Assembly: GCA_965200975.1 (NCBI GenBank) | Contig: OZ241740.1 | Location: 1,346,636-1,410,635, forward strand | DNA from: Dehalococcoidia bacterium | GTDB lineage: Bacteria > Chloroflexota > Dehalococcoidia > Lucifugimonadales > Australimonadaceae | DNA length: 64,000 nt | Direction of reading: 5' to 3' | Made by a program: the position numbers and the translations under genes | Notes under the pieces: generated by a model | The model's database searches: none | What the model was told of the DNA's origin: nothing | What the model saw: only the letters and a program-made list of their open reading frames with translations | In this document: positions 30,382 through 50,408 of the stretch, in pieces | Numbering within the stretch: the first letter of the stretch is position 1 | Layout of the letters: each line of letters starts with the position of its first letter

Positions 30382-32817
30382 TTACGAGCACTCCATCGCG
30401 GCGCGAAGGCTGTTCAAGTTGTCGCGCATGAGGCCGAAGTAGTCCCCGTGCTCGTCCAGTTCGTTCTGGGTAACGCTCTCTATCGCGTGGATCGGGTAGA
30501 CGCCAGCCCCCGTCTCGCGGGCGAGCGACTGTATATTTGCGCCGGAGAGCACGGGCTCCAGCAGCACCGCCGTGATGCCGAGATCCTTGATGCGATCGGC
30601 GATGCTGGCGAGGCGCTGCGCCGACGGCTCTGTTTCCGGGGAGAGGCCGGCGACTCCTACCTGTTCCAGGTCGTACGCTAGCGCGATGTAGCCGTATGCA
30701 GAGTGAGACGTGACGAACTCGCGGTGGGCGCACGATCTGAGGCCCGCCTCGAACTCGACGTGCAATGCCCGGAGTTCGGAGGAGAGCGCGGCGAGATTCG
30801 CCCGGTAGAAGTCGGCGCCTTCCGGGTCCGCCTGGATGAACGCCTCGGCTATGCGCTCCGCCTGGATGATGGCGCGCAGCGGGTCGAGCCAGAAGTGAGG
30901 GTCGAACTCGCCGTGATCGTGTTCGTGGTGTTCGTCCTCGTCTTCGTGCGCGTGCTCATCCTCGTGCTCGTGCGCTTCACTTTCACCGAGGACGCCGACG
31001 AAGGCGACGCCACTGGGGGAACCGCCGACGCGCCATTCCTCCTCGATCTCCATGTGTTCGAGATGGACCCCGAGGACATGACCGCTATTCGGGTCGGCGA
31101 GGAAGAGCATTTCGCCTACGACGATCATCGAGGGCGAGGGCCGTCCAAACACCCTCTCGAATGGGCCGACCAACTGCATGGTCCCGACCAATTCGCCGTC
31201 GTGAGAGTCGACAGCGCGCAGGACGCCGTCAGCGGCGAGCGTGTAGAAAGTTTCGCCGTCGCTCGAGAACGCAGCAGTGACGCTGGGCTCGGGGATCACC
31301 TCGCGCAATTCGCGGTTGACCACGTCAACCAACCAGACGCCGCCGAGCTCACAGCACTCACCGTCAGGGAAGATGGTCGCAGGGGCGAAGAAGTTGTCGC
31401 TGTCACGGTGTCCGTAGAAGAGGCCGAGCGCGACCTCCCCACCCGTCTCCTCTGGATAGGGAATGATCTCATGCTCGTACTGCCCGTCGTGCCACTGTAC
31501 GAACAGCACTCCGCCGAAGCAGCCGAAGACGGCGCCGTGCGCGTTGTGCGATTCGCCATGCAGGCCCGGGCAGGAGTTGTTGGCTGCGTCGTAGACGACT
31601 TCATTGTCGAACGTGCGCACAACAACGCCCAGTGGCAGGCAGTCGCCTGATGGGATGAACTCAGTGCAGAGCGGGTTGTTGACAGACATGATGACGTGTT
31701 CATCGGATATCGCGAACCCAGTGCCGTGCTGGATTCCGGCCTCAAGCACGATTGGTTCGTAATCGCCGCGTGAGCTCGCCAAGTCCTCCTCGTTGATCAG
31801 AATCACGTGACCGTTGGTGTCGGCGAAGATGGCGGTCCAGCCGTGGCTGTTGACGGAGTGGACCGGCCACTCTTCGACGATCTCAAGCGAGTGGCGTGAG
31901 ACGGGCTCACTAATCAGGTCGTAGTGATCACCGTGGGGGACGTAGAACACGCCGCCGTCGAAGATGTGAATGCGGTCGTCGCCACTTTCGGGTCCTCGAG
32001 CGAGGACGAAGCCGTAGCGGTGCGTGAGGCTGGGGTAGATTGACGCGTTGGGCCCGGCAATTTCGAAGATTCCGCTCTCAACACCACCGGTCCCCAGATC
32101 GATTACGGAGAGGCTCGCTTCCACCCCGTCCGCAACGAGCAGCCGGCCTATGTGGCCGTGCTCATCCTCTTCCATGCTCCCATGCTCGTCTTCGTGCGCG
32201 TGTTCGTCTTCGTGGCCGTGCCCATGCTCATCCGCGAACGGGACCGCCGCCTCCGCGTACGCAGCCTCGACGACGATGCCGGACACCTCGTCGCCCAGGG
32301 ATTCGAGCACGCGCTCCATCCACAGCTCCAACCCCAGGCCGTTCATTGCCACCACGTCGGCCTCACTGATCGCGCGGATGTCACGCGGCGTGAGCTCGAA
32401 CCCGTGGGCCTCGGCCCCGGGCGGCACGAGGACCCGCGAGTTCACGCGGTCGCCGCCGACGCGCTCGGCGAAGTACTGCATCGGATAGATGCTTGCCACC
32501 GTGCTCAGCGGCTCGGTCGCGCTGACCGGCGTGCTTGTAGGCGGAGGGCTAGCGGGGGTGTTTGTCGGCGGAGGGCTAGTAGGGGTGTTTGTGGGCGGAG
32601 GGCTAGCGGGGGTGTTTGTCGGCGGAGGGCTAGTAGGGGTGTTTGTGGGCGGAGGGCTAGCGGGGGTGTTTGTCGGCGGAGGGCTACTGGGGGCGTCCGT
32701 GGGCGGAGGGTTGGCGGGCGTGTTCGTGGGCTCTGCATCTCCCGAGCAGGCAACGACCGCCAGGGCCAGCGTCCCGACGACGAGCAGATGGCGCAAACTA
32801 TTGAGAGCATATCTCAT
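30382..32817 (-). CDS. ZnuA/TroA-type (cluster A-I) metal-binding lipoprotein with ~390-aa beta-propeller-like insertion flanked by two His/Asp/Glu tracts
   Basis: Lipobox VVAC, then PT 9-aa repeats. N-lobe: YPMQYFAERVGGDRV..VPPGAEAHGFELTPRD. C-lobe: GEFDPHFWLDP..SHSAYGY..EPSAQRLASIADRIKDLGITAVLLEP. The insert spans aa ~196-638. Confidence 0.8.
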   Translation of the reverse strand: MRYALNSLRHLLVVGTLALAVVACSGDAEPTNTPANPPPTDAPSSPPPTNTPASPPPTNTPTSPPPTNTPASPPPTNTPTSPPPTNTPASPPPTSTPVSATEPLSTVASIYPMQYFAERVGGDRVNSRVLVPPGAEAHGFELTPRDIRAISEADVVAMNGLGLELWMERVLESLGDEVSGIVVEAAYAEAAVPFADEHGHGHEDEHAHEDEHGSMEEDEHGHIGRLLVADGVEASLSVIDLGTGGVESGIFEIAGPNASIYPSLTHRYGFVLARGPESGDDRIHIFDGGVFYVPHGDHYDLISEPVSRHSLEIVEEWPVHSVNSHGWTAIFADTNGHVILINEEDLASSRGDYEPIVLEAGIQHGTGFAISDEHVIMSVNNPLCTEFIPSGDCLPLGVVVRTFDNEVVYDAANNSCPGLHGESHNAHGAVFGCFGGVLFVQWHDGQYEHEIIPYPEETGGEVALGLFYGHRDSDNFFAPATIFPDGECCELGGVWLVDVVNRELREVIPEPSVTAAFSSDGETFYTLAADGVLRAVDSHDGELVGTMQLVGPFERVFGRPSPSMIVVGEMLFLADPNSGHVLGVHLEHMEIEEEWRVGGSPSGVAFVGVLGESEAHEHEDEHAHEDEDEHHEHDHGEFDPHFWLDPLRAIIQAERIAEAFIQADPEGADFYRANLAALSSELRALHVEFEAGLRSCAHREFVTSHSAYGYIALAYDLEQVGVAGLSPETEPSAQRLASIADRIKDLGITAVLLEPVLSGANIQSLARETGAGVYPIHAIESVTQNELDEHGDYFGLMRDNLNSLRAAMECS
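32540..32728 (-). repeat. seven tandem 27-nt units (five near-identical) encoding the (S/T)PPPTNTP(A/T) linker
   Basis: ggcggagggctagcgggggtgtttgtc alternates with ggcggagggctagtaggggtgtttgtg (54-nt super-unit). The last two units are diverged. Confidence 0.9.
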
Positions 32818-44046: not shown

Positions 44047-44059
44047 GCTGCCTGTCCGG

Positions 44060-44095
44060 CTCCCCGCTTCTCTTCGAGCACGGAGAAGCGGGGAG
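44060..44095. terminator. hairpin between convergent genes (13-bp perfect stem CTCCCCGCTTCTC/GAGAAGCGGGGAG, 10-nt loop)
   Basis: Read directly from the sequence, 14 nt after the SDR stop. Confidence 0.45.
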
Positions 44096-44186
44096 ATCAG
44101 GGCGCTCTCTCACGTTTCCGCCCCCGGGATTGGGGGAGCGGACGATCTCCCGGCGGCGCGCCGGCGCCGGCTAAGGCTGCGGCGCC

Positions 44187-45299
44187 CTAGAACCCGTACA
44201 CCGCCCGAGGGTTCGCGTCGAGGATCTTGTCCACCACGCGCGGCTCGACGGAGCCCTGCTCCTTGAAGATGCGCATCGCTTCGATCTCCGACGACTGATC
44301 GGTGTGGCCGTAGTCGGTGCCGATGAGCAGGTTGTCCTCGCCGGCGTACTGCACCAGATACGCGATGTCGTCGTCCGTCTGGCAGGTAACCCACACCCGG
44401 TTCTCCGCGAAGAGGTCGTCCGGCGCGGCGCGGCCCTTCCTGCCGGGGTAGCGCCGCCCGAGGTCGTTCACGACGTACGGCGCCCACTGCGCCGCAGCCT
44501 CGACGAACGCGATGCGTAGTCCGGGGAACATCTCCGGCACTCCGGCCAGAATCCAGGCATGGCAAGCCGCCACCGAAAAGATGCGCATCGACGAGAACGG
44601 AGAGCCGCCGTCGCCGGTGTTCAGCAGCGACTCCATAGCCGGATTGCCGTTGCCTATGTGCACGGTGACGGCCATATCCAGCTTGCTCATCTCCTCGTAC
44701 AGAGGATAGTAGTAGGGGTCTTGCAGCACCCCCTCCTCTTCGATGCCGCGCATAAAAACGCCGTTTGCGCCGTGCTCCGCGGCCCAGCGCAGCTCCTTGA
44801 TCGACTCGTCCATCACCGACAACGGCAGCACTGCCGCCCAGCGCAGCCGGCCCTCCGACTGCGTCCAGATGTCGGCGAGCCAGCGGTTGTAGCCCCGGCT
44901 CAACGCCACACGCGTCTCGTCGCGCTCCGCAAGCTTCCGCAGGAAGATCGTTGGGTACAGCATCTGAAAGTCGATGCCCAACTCATCCATATGCCGGAGG
45001 CGCGCCCCTACGTCCTCCATATGCTTCGAGGCGTCGGGCGCGTCCACCTTGCGCCCGGACTTCGCCGAGGTCGCCGCCATATCCGGCGCTACCCTGTCCG
45101 GGTTCCATTCCTCCCGCTTGCCGACGGGTTGGCGCACCGTGCCCCGCAGCACGCCGTCGATCTCCCAATACCGAACGTCATTGCCTGCGTTGTTGGTTCG
45201 CGTAACGATCACAGGCCTCAGATGCCGGTCTGAGGGCGGGATGAAGTCCCACGTGCGCTCCGTCTCAACCACATGCGCGTCCGAGTCGATAACTGCCAT
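44187..45299 (-). CDS. amidohydrolase-2 family protein
   Basis: MAVIDSDAHVVE.., RLRHMDELGIDFQMLYPT, IGTDYGHTD. Paralog of 24936..25985. Confidence 0.75.
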   Translation of the reverse strand: MAVIDSDAHVVETERTWDFIPPSDRHLRPVIVTRTNNAGNDVRYWEIDGVLRGTVRQPVGKREEWNPDRVAPDMAATSAKSGRKVDAPDASKHMEDVGARLRHMDELGIDFQMLYPTIFLRKLAERDETRVALSRGYNRWLADIWTQSEGRLRWAAVLPLSVMDESIKELRWAAEHGANGVFMRGIEEEGVLQDPYYYPLYEEMSKLDMAVTVHIGNGNPAMESLLNTGDGGSPFSSMRIFSVAACHAWILAGVPEMFPGLRIAFVEAAAQWAPYVVNDLGRRYPGRKGRAAPDDLFAENRVWVTCQTDDDIAYLVQYAGEDNLLIGTDYGHTDQSSEIEAMRIFKEQGSVEPRVVDKILDANPRAVYGF

Positions 45300-45432
45300 G
45301 ACGGATTCCCCTTTCGCTCCGTTGCCGTCCAGCCTTCAGACGCCCGCACCTTACCACAGGCCTGCGGAGCGTTACGCGCGGCTGTAGCGGAGGATGCGCG
45401 AGTTTAGCCCTCCAGCTGCGAGCGCCGGCGCG

Positions 45433-46407
45433 CTACAGCAAGAACGCGGTTTGATGCTCGGGTTGAGCCGGCGCAGCGGCAAGCGCCTGCTCAAAACTCT
45501 CGGGGGTCTCGGGGTCAGGCCACAGGCAGGCCCCCTTGCGGATGAGAGCCTCGAACGCTTTACCTTCTCCGCATCGGACGTACACCGGCGCGAGGTTCAA
45601 CTTATCGAGTTGCTCGACTGCGCCGGCCCACGTTCCTCCCTGCTGATAGTCGGAGTTCACAATGAGCGCCGCATCCGCCATCGCGTAGATCATCTTGTTC
45701 CGCTGCATCGCATTGCCCACGTTGAAACCGGCAGCGGGAGCATACGGAGAGACCAGCGTCAAGTGTCCGTCAATGAGGGCGCTCCGATGCTCCCCGCGAA
45801 GCGCCGCGCCTTGCAAGTCGTTGCTCAGGACGCCTACGACGGCGCCGTCCGCCTCCAGTGCTCCCCGCATGGCTGCCTGGTCTACGCCTCGCGCCCCTCC
45901 GGAGATGAGCGCGCGTCCTGCGCGCGCCGTGAGTTTGCCGATACGCTCTGCGTAATCGAGGACGTCCTCATCCGTGCGCCGGGATCCGACTACCGCCAGC
46001 CCTCCCTGACGCAGCAGCGAATGGTCGCCGCATCCGAAGAGGATGGGGGGCGCATCCTTCCCAAGCCGCTTGAGTCGGGGAGGGTAGTCATCGTCGGCAG
46101 CGCCGACCACCCATATCGCCCGGCTGCGCCAATGCTCCAGCGCCTGACTCAGCAGGAAGCCGCGCGACAGCAGCAGCCGGAGCCTATCAGCGTCGAGAGG
46201 CAGCCTCTCGTGCGTGAGCGCATCTTCAGCGCCCTTGGCGAGCAGATCGGCGAGCGACCAGCCGTTTTCGCTAAGGAATCCGGTAAAGCGACGGTGCTCG
46301 CTCGGCTGGAGCGGCTCCGGCGCGCCATCCTGCCGCCTCGTCAGGAGGGGCGCTATGAGAAGAAGAGCCGCCTGCGTATCGGCTGAGATGTCGTCTCTGA
46401 GCGTCAT
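45433..46407 (-). CDS. DprA/Smf-like (SLOG Rossmann) protein, PsyrA/RqlI-like candidate
   Basis: ATG 46407 overlaps the helicase TGA (ATGA). YPPRLKRL..., [85 protein letters not shown]. Confidence 0.7.
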
Positions 46408-48524
46408 TCGCTGCGTCCTGCCCGGCTGAGAGAGAGCGGGAAGACGTCGCCGCTTCCGTGAAAGCGGAGCAAGTAGGCGGCCGCCGTCATAGTCCAACGG
46501 GAGTCCACGATGTCGTCAACCAGAAGCGCCGGGCCGGGCGGCGGGTTAGCGCCAATCTCCAGCGACTGGCCGACGTTCCATGCCTGGTGGGCGCTGTTCT
46601 CCATATCCTTCTGCTTCTGATGGATCCCGCTTCGCTCCAGCACGCAATGGCAGGGCAATCCTAGCGCCTCCGCAAGCCGCTGCGCGAACTCCCGCACGAG
46701 TTCCGGGCGGCGGATAGACGGGATCGGGACTACCCAGGCCGGCGCAGGCGACGGGGCCCATTCCCGCACCAGGCGTACGCAAGCGTCCACCAGCTCATCC
46801 GAAAAGCGCTCGTACTGGTATTTTCCAGCAAGCACGAGCTCGCCCCATCCGGCGTCTCCCCACGCGCAGAGCGCCCTGCCCGGAGCAGCCGCCAGATGAG
46901 GGGGAATCCTTCCGGACATTCCGCCAGCGCCGTCTGCCGCGCGCCTGCTCAAGCCGCCGGGAGTATCCGCAAGCATACTCGCCAGCCCGGGGGGCCACTC
47001 TTTGCGCGGTTCAATAGTGATGGCGGAGCGACGCAGGAAGGCTGCCGCCTCTCGCGCCAGGCCGTCGCCGACGGTAGCCGGCAAAGGCTGAAACGTGGGC
47101 GGAGTCGCCTGCCCGGGGTCGCCGTCCAAAGCGCGGATAAGGAACTCCATATGACCTGACTCCAGTCCTACGTACTCCTGCATCTGCTCGAGTTCCGCCT
47201 TTCGGAGCGTAGTCAGGCGGCCCACGCGCTCCCAAAAGTCTTCGCTTAGCCTGGCCGCGGTCAGCCGCCATTTGGAGCCTTCGTGCACGACTGGCGCGGG
47301 CGACTCAAGCGCCAGCAGCTGTAGAGCTTTCTTCACACGCCCCTGGCGAATGTTTACTCGACGCATCGCTTCCGGCACAGAGAGACCGCGGGGAGCCTGC
47401 TCCAGCGCAGCGGTCAGCTGCTCCACCTCCGCGCGAGTCGGGAAGGCCGTCTCGATGAAGTAGTTGCTGATGTCCTGTTCTTCAGGCCCGCTCAACAGGA
47501 CGCCATATGCTCTGTCCAGCGCTCGACCGGCTCGCCCCACCTGCTGGTAGTAGTGAATCACCGAACCCGGCGCCTGGTAATGGAACACGAACGCGAGGTC
47601 AGGCTTGTCGAAGCCCATCCCCAGCGCAGTCGTTGCGACGAGCGCCTTGACCTGGTTGTTCAGGAGCGCTTCTTCCAGCTCCGGCCTGCGGTTGCCGCTC
47701 TCGCCGGTGTACGCCTCGACCTCGAACCCTTTGAAACGCAGCCAGTCTGCTACGCGCTCCGCATCCCGGACAGTGAGCGTGTAGATGATGCCGCTTCCGT
47801 CAATCTCTTCGAGACGCGAGGCCAGCCATGCGAGGCGCTCCGCCTGACTGGGAAGGCGAATAGTCTGCAACAGCAGCGACGGGCGGCCCAATTCGCCCCG
47901 GCGCACGCTGAAGCTCAGACCGGGCAGGCTCTTCAAGTCGTCCAGCACGCGGTCCGTAGCGGTGGCGGTCGTCGCCAGTATCCGCAGGTTGGGAGGCAAT
48001 AGACGAACGATGCGCTCGACCCGCCGGTAGTCCGGGCGGAAATCGTGCCCCCAGTCCGAGATGCAGTGCGCCTCGTCGATTACGAGCAGGCTGATCTTGC
48101 CGGCTGCGCCGGCGAGCGCCTCATCGTTGAAGCGCTGGTTCCCCAGCCGCTCCGGCGAGATAAGCAGGACGTCCAGCGCATCCGATCGTAAATCGTCTTC
48201 TATCGATTTCCAGTTATCGGAGTTGTCGGAGTTGATGGTTGCAGCGCGGATCCCCATTCTCTCCGCAGCGGCAATCTGGTTGCGCATCAGTGCGAGCAGC
48301 GGCGATATGAGGAGGGCAGGGCCGTAGCCCGCCTCGCGGAGCAGCCGGATGGCGATGAAGTAGATGTAACTCTTGCCCCATCCTGTCCTCTGAACGAGTA
48401 GCAGCGGCCCGTCTCCTTCCACTATGTGGCGGATGGCCTCTTCCTGGCCGTCCCGGAACTGCGCGTCGGGCAAACCTGTGCCGAGACGAAGAAGTTGCAA
48501 GGCGCGGGAATGGTTGTATTCCAT
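46404..48524 (-). CDS. RecQ-family SF2 helicase fused to a C-terminal ComF-type phosphoribosyltransferase-like domain, PsyrT/RqlH-like candidate
   Basis: TGWGKS (Walker A), [21 protein letters not shown] (RecQ-type motif II), [18 protein letters not shown]-terminal ..VVPIPS...[13 protein letters not shown] (PRPP-loop-like). Confidence 0.75.
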
Positions 48525-48743
48525 GGTGCTGCAGGGCCCTCTCTGGGTTGTTCGCAGTCGATGGAGCTACCGTAAAAGCCTCGCCGACGCCCGGACAAGG
48601 GGCTAATGTCATAGCGCAGGAGCGCGAATGAAAAGAAGGCGCGCGGCCCGGTGGGGCGGACGCCCGCAGCGCGCCGCTCGCAAAAGCGCAGGCAGCTGAA
48701 GAGTTTCGCGCGAGTGGTAGCATTGCCCGCGTGGAGGCCGGCT

Positions 48744-50408
48744 ATGTACAACGTGTCGCCTGATGAACTGCGCGGACTCGCCCGCATTGCAGGACTGCGC
48801 GTCCTCGACGAGGATATCGAACCGCTTACGCTCCAATTCAATGCGCTCACGGAAGGGCTCGCGACGCTCGACGAACATGACTTGCACGATGTCGCGCCCT
48901 TGCCGGCGCTGCAGCACCCGTCTCCCCCTGTCTCGGGCCCCCGTAGTCCTGAAGCCGCGCCGCCGGCGCCAAGCGCGGAGTCCGATGCGCCTCTGCCGTA
49001 CAAGTCGATTGCCGAACTGGCGGGCCTGCTCCGCGCCCGGGAAATCTCGTCCGCCGAGCTCACCGGGATGTACCTTGACCGAATCGAGCGCTTCGACAGC
49101 GAACTCAACTCGTACATCACCGTGACGACGGAGATCGCTCGCGAGCAGGCGCGCCGGGCCGATGCGGCGCTCGCGAACGGAGAAGACGCCGGGCCGCTCA
49201 TGGGCATCCCCCTCGCCCACAAGGATGAGTTCTGCACCGACGGCGTTCTCACCACGTGCGGCTCTCGGACGCTCGCCGAGTACGTCCCCGATTACGACGC
49301 CGCAGCCATCGAGCGGATGCACGCCGCCGGCGCCGTTATGCTCGGCAAGCTCAATATGACCGAATGGGCGTCCCCTCTCACCTGGGTTTTCCCGTACGGA
49401 CAGCCCCGTAATCCCTGGAGCCTGGAGCACGACGCCGGGGGATCGAGCACCGGGTCGGGCGTAGCCGTCGCCGCAGCGCTCTGCGCAGGCTCAATCGGCG
49501 AGGACACCGGAGGATCGATTAGACGACCCGCCTCCTGCAACAGCGTTGTTGGCCTGCGCCCCTCGCTCGGACGCGTCAGCGCCTACGGGATGTTCGCCAG
49601 CAATTGGAACCAGGACACCGTAGGCCCCCTTGCACGCTCCGTCGCCGACTGCGCGCTCCTGATGAACGCCGTCGCAGGCTACGACCCTCGCGACCCTGTC
49701 TCCGCCAACCTGCCAGTTCCCGACTACGCCGCCGCATTGACCGGCGACGCCGTTGGCCTTCGCGTAGGCGTAGTCCGGGAAGCGTTCGACGCGCCTCACC
49801 TTGACCCGCGAATCAAGCAGCTTGCGCTCGACGCCGTACGGACTCTCGAATCGCTCGGCGCCGCCGTCGCGGACGCTTCCATCCCGTTGATGACTCTCAG
49901 CGGACTCATCAACGGCGCCTTCGGGGCTCCTCGCGCCGCGCTCCACTGGCGCTACCTGAACGACGCTCCCGAACTCTACGACGTCGGCGTCCGGCGCAAC
50001 ACCATCCTGCCGGCCCTGCTTCCGGCGTCGACGTATCAGCGGGCTCTGCAGCTCCGCGCTCTGATGCGCGCGCAGACCCTCGAGGCCCTCGCCCGCTGCG
50101 ATGTGCTGCTGGCGCCGGCCTACGCCGGGTTCCCGCCGCTCATCGCGGCAGGCAAGAGCGACCCTCCCTCAAAAGAGGCGGCGGTCGAGCAGATGCGGCG
50201 CTACGGATTCCACACTCCCGCCAACTACACCGGCGCGCCCGCAATGTCCGTGCCCATGGGTTTCTCCGGCGACGGTTTGCCTATCGGTTTGCACATTATG
50301 GCGAAGCCGTTCGACGAGCTTGCAATCTTTCGCGCCGCCTACGCTTACGAGCAGGCCGCGCCGTGGCGGGCGATGCGTCCGCCCTTCGGCGACGGCGCGC
50401 CGCCGTAA
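48744..50408 (+). CDS. amidase-signature enzyme with N-terminal GatC-like domain
   Basis: ATG 48744 lies 6 nt after GGAGG. aa 1-50 SPDELRGLARIAGLRVLDEDIEPLTLQFNALTEGLATLDE.DL.DV.P are GatC-like. After a Pro-rich linker come GIPLAHKD, GGSSTGSG, GGSIRRPAS (AS family). Confidence 0.75.
   Translation: MYNVSPDELRGLARIAGLRVLDEDIEPLTLQFNALTEGLATLDEHDLHDVAPLPALQHPSPPVSGPRSPEAAPPAPSAESDAPLPYKSIAELAGLLRAREISSAELTGMYLDRIERFDSELNSYITVTTEIAREQARRADAALANGEDAGPLMGIPLAHKDEFCTDGVLTTCGSRTLAEYVPDYDAAAIERMHAAGAVMLGKLNMTEWASPLTWVFPYGQPRNPWSLEHDAGGSSTGSGVAVAAALCAGSIGEDTGGSIRRPASCNSVVGLRPSLGRVSAYGMFASNWNQDTVGPLARSVADCALLMNAVAGYDPRDPVSANLPVPDYAAALTGDAVGLRVGVVREAFDAPHLDPRIKQLALDAVRTLESLGAAVADASIPLMTLSGLINGAFGAPRAALHWRYLNDAPELYDVGVRRNTILPALLPASTYQRALQLRALMRAQTLEALARCDVLLAPAYAGFPPLIAAGKSDPPSKEAAVEQMRRYGFHTPANYTGAPAMSVPMGFSGDGLPIGLHIMAKPFDELAIFRAAYAYEQAAPWRAMRPPFGDGAPP

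Follow-up and report, generated by a model that had tools for sequence, protein, structure and literature searches.

A probable PsyrTA (RqlHI) toxin-antitoxin cassette with a zinc-less helicase in an uncultured Chloroflexota chromosome

Within the 64,000-nucleotide stretch of chromosome that we analysed (the window), two co-directional minus-strand genes, psyrT (rqlH) and psyrA (rqlI), share an ATGA stop/start overlap (Table 1). An AGGA Shine-Dalgarno-like site at 46419-46416 stands ahead of the psyrA start, and an independent gene call on a metagenome copy likewise yields a 324-aa product and a 4-nt overlap. An alternative psyrA start, TTG at 46497 (354 aa), was rejected because similarity to homologues and to the PsyrA model sets in only about 30 residues further on; it is also disfavoured by the independent gene call, which picks the ATG, and by the -4 overlap being the commonest spacing among 82 related loci, in which the DprA-like gene is almost always directly behind the helicase gene (directly downstream in about 70 of the 74 loci with room for a partner). 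The flanks are catabolic in a Pfam scan, with an amidase gene diverging from 48744 and amidohydrolase_2, SDR, cupin and MFS genes, and the gap upstream of psyrT measures 219 bp (48525-48743). A preliminary description, made from the letters and their open reading frames, had named the overlap, the 324-aa DprA/SLOG frame behind it, the catabolic flanks and the upstream region, all of which were confirmed. None of the features seen at the locus (reading frames, motifs, overlap, flanks) is attributable to chance.

Table 1. Features of the psyrTA locus in window coordinates.
Feature	Position	Strand	Basis
Whole inserted cassette (promoter region, psyrT, psyrA and 70-nt tail)	45363..48716	-	blastn against empty-site locus L083
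Candidate promoter, TTGTCC, 18-nt spacer, TACGGT (tentative)	48569..48598	-	Conserved columns aligned with L082 and L001 upstream regions
psyrT / rqlH, 706-aa RecQ-like helicase with ComF-type phosphoribosyltransferase (PRTase) domain (toxin component)	46404..48524	-	PADLOC PsyrT, full length
SF2 RecQ-type motor core, aa 21-345; motifs I GWGKS, II DEAH, III TATA	47490..48464	-	Pfam, RecQ alignments
RqlH-specific linker, winged-helix-like prediction, aa ~364-421 (tentative)	47262..47435	-	AlphaFold2 pLDDT 84-94, three helices and beta-hairpin
Degenerate remnant of RecQ/RqlH tetracysteine zinc module, aa ~455-490, all four Cys absent	47055..47162	-	Alignment with Cys-bearing relatives
16-aa insertion, aa 520-535	46920..46967	-	Alignments of relatives
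Predicted ComF-type PRTase domain, aa ~545-706, presumed toxic effector	46407..46892	-	AlphaFold2 and Foldseek; weak HMM matches
PRPP-binding loop, aa 666-680 (15 residues, with a 12-residue string at aa 667-678)	46485..46529	-	Conservation
ATGA stop/start overlap, translational coupling	46404..46407	-	Sequence read directly
psyrA / rqlI, 324-aa DprA-like (SLOG) protein, short form without C-terminal wHTH (antitoxin component)	45433..46407	-	PADLOC PsyrA
DprA/SLOG Rossmann core of PsyrA, aa ~94-291	45535..46128	-	Pfam DNA_processg_A E=9e-34, LDcluster4 (SLOG) E=3e-11

The amino-terminal part of PsyrT is an intact RecQ-type 3'-5' motor, as the preliminary description had recognized from its SF2/RecQ motifs. 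The protein matches the Pfam models DEAD (E=2e-23) and Helicase_C (E=4e-14), solved RecQ cores can be aligned with its residues 21-345 (4q47, E=9e-53; 1oyw, E=2e-46), and GWGKS, DEAH and QQVGRAGR are invariant across 78 aligned relatives. The motor is thus homologous to that of bacterial RecQ (E. coli, D. radiodurans and C. sakazakii structures), but the alignment ends at about aa 350-365, Pfam finds no RQC or HRDC match in the protein, and PsyrT differs from these helicases in lacking the zinc ligands, a canonically placed RQC winged helix and HRDC, with a PRTase domain instead. Behind the motor lies a winged-helix-like linker, a tentative call given that its Foldseek matches are weak (MarR/wHTH, E of at least 0.038).

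The RecQ-type zinc module is regarded as a signature of the extended RecQ family. In PsyrT only a Cys-less remnant occupies its position: residues 155-552 contain no cysteine, the first ligand is replaced by histidine (GHM) and the CGxCxxC segment is replaced within a 20-residue string, where more distant relatives read GC.M...CGxCxxC; the AlphaFold2 model of this region has a pLDDT below 50. The early observation that no Cys cluster follows motif VI held up in 20 close homologues, among which C553 and C582 are the only conserved cysteine columns past that motif. The 16-aa insertion further downstream is missing from all relatives displayed there (12 of the 31 zinc-less and four Cys-bearing sequences), and tabulated relatives are 15-17 aa shorter than the 706 aa of the window protein.

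The C-terminal tail of PsyrT is predicted to be a ComF-type PRTase, with good support from the modelled fold. Its AlphaFold2 model (pLDDT 78.5) finds H. pylori ComF (7p0h, E=2.9e-4) as the top Foldseek match, followed by APRT, PurF, ShosT and PyrR. Sequence models of the tail stay below threshold (Pfam Pribosyltran, E=0.022; TIGR00201 comF, E=0.021 and 14.8 bits against a cut-off of 233), as does a profile search of the PDB (PRPP synthetase, E=0.003), so that we base the domain assignment on the predicted fold and the literature. The preliminary proposal of a ComF-like tail with a PRPP loop is therefore sustained by fold and loop conservation, but not by sequence HMMs. The loop itself is intact: VDDIVDS (aa 669-675) is conserved in 75-78 of 78 sequences, with D670 and W677 invariant, D671 present in 77 and D674 in 75, and the T680-type position is (nearly) invariant. 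It corresponds to DIVD663 of E. coli RqlH, mutation of which abolishes toxicity (PMC4670107).

PsyrA carries the DprA/SLOG core, and its nearest solved relatives by sequence are DprA (3uqz, 3maj, 4ljk) and ShosA (8zva, 9vzo). Its match to the PADLOC PsyrA model (PDLC03927, E=2.1e-107) runs from position 3 to position 311 of the 398 in the model; the wHTH region at the C-terminal end of the model has no counterpart. The E. coli/Pseudomonas-type antitoxin has a low-complexity linker and a C-terminal wHTH, whereas the 324-aa window protein has neither, and DprA-like partners fall into two length classes among related loci.

Taken together, the pair is very probably a PsyrTA (= RqlHI) toxin-antitoxin/anti-phage module that forms an accessory cassette of 3.35 kb within the chromosome of an uncultured member of the Chloroflexota. 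The PADLOC check proposed in the preliminary description, which had called the pair PsyrTA-like, matched both components; PsyrT (PDLC03928) scores E=2.2e-254 and 843.9 bits, protein residues 1-703 covering positions 1-685 of the 689 in the model. PsyrT is 46% identical over its full length to an E. coli RqlH-type protein, and PsyrA 39% identical to the E. coli partner; that E. coli pair shares the 4-nt overlap. As in the PsyrTA/RqlHI systems of E. coli F11 and P. syringae, two co-directional genes with the helicase first overlap at stop and start, an order that fits PMC4670107, and encode a RecQ-like motor, a linker, a C-terminal ComF-type PRTase with a DDxVDSxWT PRPP loop and a DprA/SLOG partner. 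The window pair differs from them in that PsyrT lacks all four zinc-module cysteines and has the 16-aa insertion, and in lying in a catabolic neighbourhood, not in a defence island. The joining of helicase and PRTase that the preliminary description presented as a fusion is real but not peculiar to this locus, being the canonical RqlH/PsyrT architecture and the defining one since 2012 (PMC3378886).

One biochemical reference is the RqlH of M. smegmatis (MSMEG_5935; Ordonez et al. 2012), a helicase with 3'-5' polarity and ssDNA-dependent ATPase activity from a species in which classical RecQ is absent (PMC3378886). The two proteins share the ATPase, the RqlH-specific linker, the zinc-module position and the ComF-like PRTase, are similar in length (691 and 706 aa), and neither has HRDC. 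The mycobacterial protein, however, has a tetracysteine zinc module and no RqlI partner, whereas the window PsyrT is paired with a partner and lacks zinc ligands. As the tetracysteine module is missing, the window PsyrT is not a member under the strict 2012 RqlH domain definition and is a zinc-less RqlH variant. Given that the zinc-ligand cysteines of M. smegmatis RqlH and of the E. coli-type relatives are absent, and that a truncation removing the zinc module renders the M. smegmatis protein insoluble (PMC3378886), the helicase behaviour of the window protein may differ.

Comparison with a close relative identifies the pair as accessory. In the relative's syntenic locus (L083) the amidase and amidohydrolase genes adjoin each other with no psyrTA between; blastn homology to the window reaches 48717 and restarts at 45362, L083 having about 112 bp of other, unrelated sequence in between, and the flanking proteins are 93% identical. 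The empty site therefore makes the psyrTA pair a 3.35-kb indel (window ~45363-48716), and filled and empty sites in close relatives delimit a minimal mobile unit of about 190 bp upstream, the two genes and 70 bp downstream. Searches of 44900-49100 for repeats, target-site duplications and inverted repeats gave only short, chance-level matches, and there is no GC or skew anomaly over the insert. Over 45100-48900 a sigma-70 consensus scan returned no promoters, leaving the candidate promoter unflagged, and a terminator scan gave one terminator-like site, within psyrT and below shuffle expectation; neither untranslated region, 5' or 3', stood out in RNA folding (z-scores near 0).

In a neighbour-joining tree of 78 sequences, 31 zinc-less PsyrT proteins, drawn from many phyla, group as one monophyletic clade, all of them without the zinc cysteines, consistent with a single loss of the module. 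Identities within this clade are 55-86% across at least 10 phyla, and cross-phylum PsyrT identities of 73-75% indicate that the gene has spread laterally. The closest PsyrT relatives occupy a gene context different from that of the window. No relatives were found in phage genomes, and plasmids held only 14 in 72,556 records; nothing in these searches points to carriage by phages or plasmids.

Much of what the pair may do has been described for its homologues. psyrTA was discovered as a toxin-antitoxin pair through shotgun-cloning bias, and RqlHI behaves as a toxin-antitoxin-like pair in E. coli (PMC4670107). There, the toxin is the helicase-PRTase protein, acting via its PRTase domain, and the DprA-like protein is the antitoxin (PMC4670107, 2015); the unopposed PRTase domain is genotoxic, causing SOS induction, filamentation and mutagenesis, and RqlI of E. 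coli F11 binds RqlH through the PRTase domain and neutralizes it, its HTH being dispensable (PMC4670107). A PsyrTA homologue gives phage resistance, and a psyrA deletion was not obtainable (bioRxiv 10.1101/2022.05.11.491447). For the window pair, toxicity, neutralization and phage defence are putative functions, transferred from homologues only 39-46% identical.

A first alternative is that the pair is a selfish addiction module, stabilizing itself or its neighbourhood and offering its host no phage protection. The discovery of psyrTA as a toxin-antitoxin pair is in keeping with this, as is the position of the locus, which stands alone among catabolic genes, outside any defence island and with no other defence genes found nearby. 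We nonetheless regard it as improbable, given the phage resistance conferred by the homologous system and the defence contexts of E. coli homologues, which lie inside a type I R-M operon or beside SLATT and RelA-like genes; addiction and phage defence are, moreover, not mutually exclusive roles.

That the pair instead represents a housekeeping RecQ helicase and DprA recombination mediator, serving DNA repair or natural transformation and not conflict, is very improbable. The strong resemblance of the motor to solved RecQ, a recQ_fam score just short of its cut-off (TIGR00614, 218.1 against 219.8), the DprA Pfam domain of PsyrA and the precedent of M. smegmatis, with RqlH in place of classical RecQ, would all accord with such a role, but the equivalog models fail for both proteins (recQ TIGR01389, 251.4 bits against 640.2, and PRK11057, 183.7 against 1015; dprA TIGR00732, 83.6 against 191.15, and PRK10736, 65.8 against 495). 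The alignment to RecQ stops at about aa 350 and no RQC or HRDC follows, the close relative with 93% identical flanking proteins does without the pair at this site, and the differing gene contexts and apparent lateral spread of the closest PsyrT relatives likewise argue against a housekeeping role.

We give virtually no credence to the helicase being a DpdF-like part of a 7-deazaguanine DNA-modification/restriction (Dpd) system, or the pair being ShosTA, in spite of PADLOC matches to DpdF (up to E=9e-84) and ShosA (E=2.2e-23) and of ShosT among the structural matches of the PRTase domain: the DpdF matches span the helicase half only (aa 9-406; 280 bits against 844 for PsyrT), NCBIfam DpdF NF041063 scores 147.6 bits against a cut-off of 550, the neighbours scanned with Pfam models are catabolic and include no typical Dpd-cluster genes (e.g., tRNA-guanine transglycosylase-like DpdA), ShosT has no helicase, no ShosT model is among the best 25 of 41 PADLOC matches for PsyrT, and PsyrA outscores ShosA by 277 bits, so that score ratios and gene content effectively refute both identities.

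ShosTA of E. coli APEC O1 (8zvb-8zvd, 8zva, 9vzo) is still informative for PsyrTA as a related system, in which a PRTase toxin is likewise paired with a DprA-like antitoxin and PRPP binding is essential for toxicity. In ShosT the N-terminal place of the PsyrT helicase is taken by a pyrophosphatase-like hydrolase domain, and ShosT and ShosA form no stable interaction (type IV), whereas RqlI co-precipitates with RqlH; the ShosTA trigger is the loss of a labile antitoxin after host shut-off (PMC11961720). We propose that in the uninfected cell PsyrA would keep the PsyrT PRTase in check. Phage infection may then free the PRTase, either because a labile antitoxin is lost once the host is shut off, as in ShosTA, or because ssDNA or replication intermediates of the phage engage the helicase or the DprA-like protein. 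Once free, the PRTase would consume PRPP and damage DNA or nucleotide pools, thereby aborting the infection.

The preliminary description had also likened the domain set to the competence machinery for ssDNA. The likeness extends to ComF being the best solved match of the PRTase domain, to the DprA-fold partner and to an associated helicase, as ComFA is with ComFC. The window PsyrT, however, lacks the N-terminal zinc finger of ComFC, its helicase is RecQ-type and not ComFA-type, and there are no competence genes near psyrTA; the ComFA/ComFC/DprA parallel is, in addition, not new, having been drawn in PMC4670107. That psyrTA senses foreign ssDNA or nucleotide signals is speculation.

The cassette thus belongs to a described family and is ordinary save for its subclade's loss of the zinc-binding cysteines of the helicase. 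Its discovery value is small, as PsyrTA/RqlHI is catalogued, its architecture was published in 2012 and 2015, and standard defence-finder profiles detect the locus; for the mechanism of the family, it is no more testable than the E. coli systems. It is possible, though rather unlikely, that zinc-finger-less PsyrT, here paired with a wHTH-less PsyrA, marks a distinct, undescribed PsyrTA subtype. If so, loss of the zinc module could alter how the helicase engages DNA, and hence what the system senses, and the main target of a SLOG-fold antitoxin might be the PRTase or its nucleotide product, more than DNA. The natural 324-aa PsyrA mirrors an engineered RqlI 1-320, which fully neutralizes RqlH, and a zinc module that was apparently lost once, in a protein that is still widespread, provides a natural experiment on what the module is for.

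The preliminary description read the pair as PsyrTA-like, and its family identity, together with published work on RqlHI, PsyrTA and ShosTA, supports that interpretation. The PADLOC models for PsyrT (E=2.2e-254, protein 1-703 vs model 1-685/689) and PsyrA (E=2.1e-107) both match, DpdF, ShosA and other PADLOC models score far below them and each cover just part of the respective protein, and the equivalogs for housekeeping recQ (251 vs 640 bits) and dprA (83.6 vs 191 bits) fail. PsyrA also matches Pfam DNA_processg_A (E=9e-34) and SLOG LDcluster4, its closest solved relatives being DprA proteins and ShosA. Identity to an E. coli pair that shares the 4-nt overlap, annotated by PGAP as 'RecQ family helicase' and 'DprA', is 46% for PsyrT and 39% for PsyrA, and DNA-level matches to a gene of this kind occur in about 1,680 of 5,426 complete E. 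coli genomes. The window pair is a further member of the catalogued PsyrTA/RqlHI system. The helicase::PRTase 'fusion' and the competence-triad analogy are both already in the literature; the family-level nuances here are a zinc-less PsyrT clade and a short antitoxin form, together with a clean insertion site.

Coordinates of the features discussed (window positions unless a locus is named)
Feature	Position	Strand
psyrT, 706 aa	46404-48524	-
psyrA, 324 aa	45433-46407	-
psyrA ATG	46407-46405	-
ATGA overlap	46407-46404	-
Rejected TTG start of psyrA	46497	-
Former zinc module (aa ~455-490)	47055-47162	-
Homology to L083 (ends; resumes)	48717; 45362	
Terminator-like hairpin	48627-48681	-
Divergent amidase	from 48744	
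Run of catabolic paralogues	39754-56576	
Extra amidohydrolase_2, L083 vs window	L083 9017-10210; window 44047-44186	
811-aa ORF with ZnuA matches	30382-32817	-
E. coli 2/0 pair and operon	L087 1-10088	
E. coli SCU-102 pair	L088 7605-10086	

The 706-aa ORF and its ATGA overlap with a 324-aa ORF were confirmed by the ORF list, by direct reading of the junction (...AGC GAA TGA, with AGGA eight nucleotides upstream of the psyrA ATG) and by an independent gene call on a metagenome contig encoding an identical PsyrT protein, where the two genes code for 706 and 324 aa and overlap by 4 nt. A 354-aa psyrA from an upstream TTG was rejected because the PsyrA profile and all homologue alignments start about 30 residues downstream. 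Across 80 loci from many phyla, drawn from a scan of species-representative genomes, and two metagenome loci, a PsyrA homologue lies directly downstream of the helicase gene wherever at least 1 kb follows, with four exceptions, and a -4 overlap is the commonest spacing. No DprA-like gene was found downstream of full-length PsyrT/RqlH in L027, L054 and L074 (8 kb each) or in L048 (only 1.4 kb); two of these partnerless loci belong to Actinomycetota, which fits the published observation that RqlH is often alone in Gram-positive bacteria. DprA-like partners fall into a short class (~320-360 aa), which includes the window PsyrA, and a long class (~410-490 aa), whose members also have a low-complexity linker and, at the C-terminus, a wHTH. 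In E. coli strain 2/0 (NZ_CP023853.1), an RqlH/RqlI-type pair is nested in a type I restriction-modification operon (hsdM, hsdS, helicase, DprA-like gene, hsdR), and in E. coli SCU-102 an RqlHI-type pair adjoins GTP pyrophosphokinase (RelA/SpoT-like), nucleoid-associated protein and SLATT-domain genes, a neighbourhood that looks like a defence or mobile-island context.

The SF2/RecQ motifs of PsyrT held up, with Pfam matches to DEAD and Helicase_C, alignment of residues 21-345 with solved RecQ cores (E down to 9e-53; none past residue ~352), and motifs I, II, III and VI invariant among 78 aligned relatives. The ComF-type PRTase proposed for the C-terminal tail stood at the level of fold but not of sequence HMMs: Pfam Pribosyltran (E=0.022) and TIGR00201 comF (E=0.021) were sub-threshold, the latter yet colinear to the model end, and a 14-sequence tail profile gave PDB matches that were nearly all PRPP synthetases and HGPRTs at the PRPP loop, also sub-threshold (best E=0.003). 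Foldseek of an AlphaFold2 model of aa 495-706 (pLDDT 78.5) against the PDB ranked H. pylori ComF first (7p0h, E=2.9e-4), then APRT, PurF, ShosT, PyrR and OPRT, and on this modelled structure the predicted ComF-type PRTase holds. Its PRPP loop, VDDIVDS, is the counterpart of the DIVD663 motif of E. coli RqlH, mutation of which abolishes toxicity (PMC4670107). The model of aa 338-512 is confident (pLDDT 84-94) for a unit of three helices and a hairpin at aa ~364-421; it also shows a long helix, and has no confidence in the zinc-remnant part. Foldseek gave weak support for a winged helix. The window PsyrT has a 16-aa insertion at aa 520-535 that is absent in every relative displayed at that position in the alignments.

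The lack of a Cys cluster after motif VI was likewise corroborated, and is common to a whole clade. The 78 full-length relatives split cleanly by the zinc-module region: the window sequence and 30 others (L001-L029 and L082; 55-77% identity to the window) have no Cys there, and the other 47 (Providencia, Pseudomonas, Sinorhizobium, Clostridium, cyanobacteria and others; 42-52%) carry GC.M...CGxCxxC. In a neighbour-joining tree from which this region was left out, the 31 zinc-less sequences form one exclusive clade, with a median identity of 64% within it and 50% to the remaining sequences; as judged from the alignment, this monophyletic clade has lost all four zinc-module cysteines. Its members come from many phyla, among them Chloroflexota, Proteobacteria, Nitrospirota, Acidobacteriota, Verrucomicrobiota, Bipolaricaulota, Spirochaetota, Gemmatimonadota and Mycobacterium, and pairs from different phyla reach 73-75% identity, a sign of lateral transfer. 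In the papers cited here on RqlH/RqlI, PsyrTA and ShosTA we came across no RqlH clade described as cysteine-less.

The catabolic flanks also proved as described, the neighbours being amidase, amidohydrolase_2, SDR, cupin, MFS and arylmalonate-decarboxylase-like genes; with ribonucleotide reductase, malic enzyme, TctA, ZnuA and one tRNA-Pro elsewhere, the window is a stretch of ordinary chromosome and no defence island. It has a dense run of paralogous genes for amidohydrolase_2, cupin, MFS, amidase and SDR proteins. Since the named relatives of the ribonucleotide reductase are Chloroflexota MAGs (79-82% identity), the window probably derives from an uncultured Chloroflexota in which families of catabolic paralogues have expanded. 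Going by its two matches to ZnuA (periplasmic zinc uptake), the 811-aa ORF would encode a solute-binding protein of unusual length, apparently duplicated; the ORF may be an artefact of gene calling in high-GC DNA.

In L083, a close relative with an empty site (amidohydrolase 93% identical), the amidase and amidohydrolase are directly adjacent, 203 bp apart, and the break in nucleotide homology (81-84%) identifies the psyrTA pair as a 3.35-kb indel replacing ~112 bp, around which no flanking repeats and in which no GC anomaly were found. L083 has an extra amidohydrolase_2 gene between amidohydrolase and SDR that is absent from the window, so the cluster has further indels besides psyrTA. The closest PsyrT relatives (75-77%) lie between dnaE and folC/fabF in related Chloroflexota genomes, a different gene context that fits movement within the lineage. 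Some of the sequence upstream of the pair, with a TTGTCC-N18-TACGGT element in it, can be aligned to these nearest-relative loci, which suggests that a candidate promoter travels along with the cassette. Inside the insert, ~100 nt ahead of psyrT, lies a terminator-like element made up of a GC-rich hairpin and, after it, TTCTTTTCATT; it was not flagged by a consensus scan. The same strand has no gene upstream of this element, which may be left over from the donor context or serve as an insulator. PsyrT relatives were absent from the phage genomes searched and rare on plasmids (14 records); haloarchaeal plasmid matches (H10-H12; Halomicrobium, Halanaeroarchaeum) are full-length at 42% identity and 99-100% coverage, so the family reaches into Archaea.

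RqlH is an ATPase that depends on ssDNA, and a 3'-5' helicase (PMC3378886). In E. coli F11, the PRTase domain makes RqlH genotoxic when RqlI is missing; RqlI needs this domain to co-precipitate with RqlH, and RqlI 1-320, which lacks the HTH, is still able to rescue (PMC4670107); phage protection has been reported for PsyrTA (bioRxiv 10.1101/2022.05.11.491447). In the sister system ShosTA, the PRTase toxin requires PRPP binding, the DprA-like antitoxin is DNA-binding and unstable, and the trigger is T7 Gp0.7 shut-off (PMC11961720, PMC12961424). The window locus has an intact motor, an intact PRPP loop, a DprA/SLOG partner, translational coupling and accessory status; by analogy with the homologues, the helicase-PRTase protein would be the toxin, and helicase activity, genotoxicity that depends on the PRTase, neutralisation through direct binding and phage defence would carry over. 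We propose that infection would remove or titrate PsyrA, and that the freed PRTase may then use PRPP, damaging DNA or nucleotide pools and so aborting the infection.
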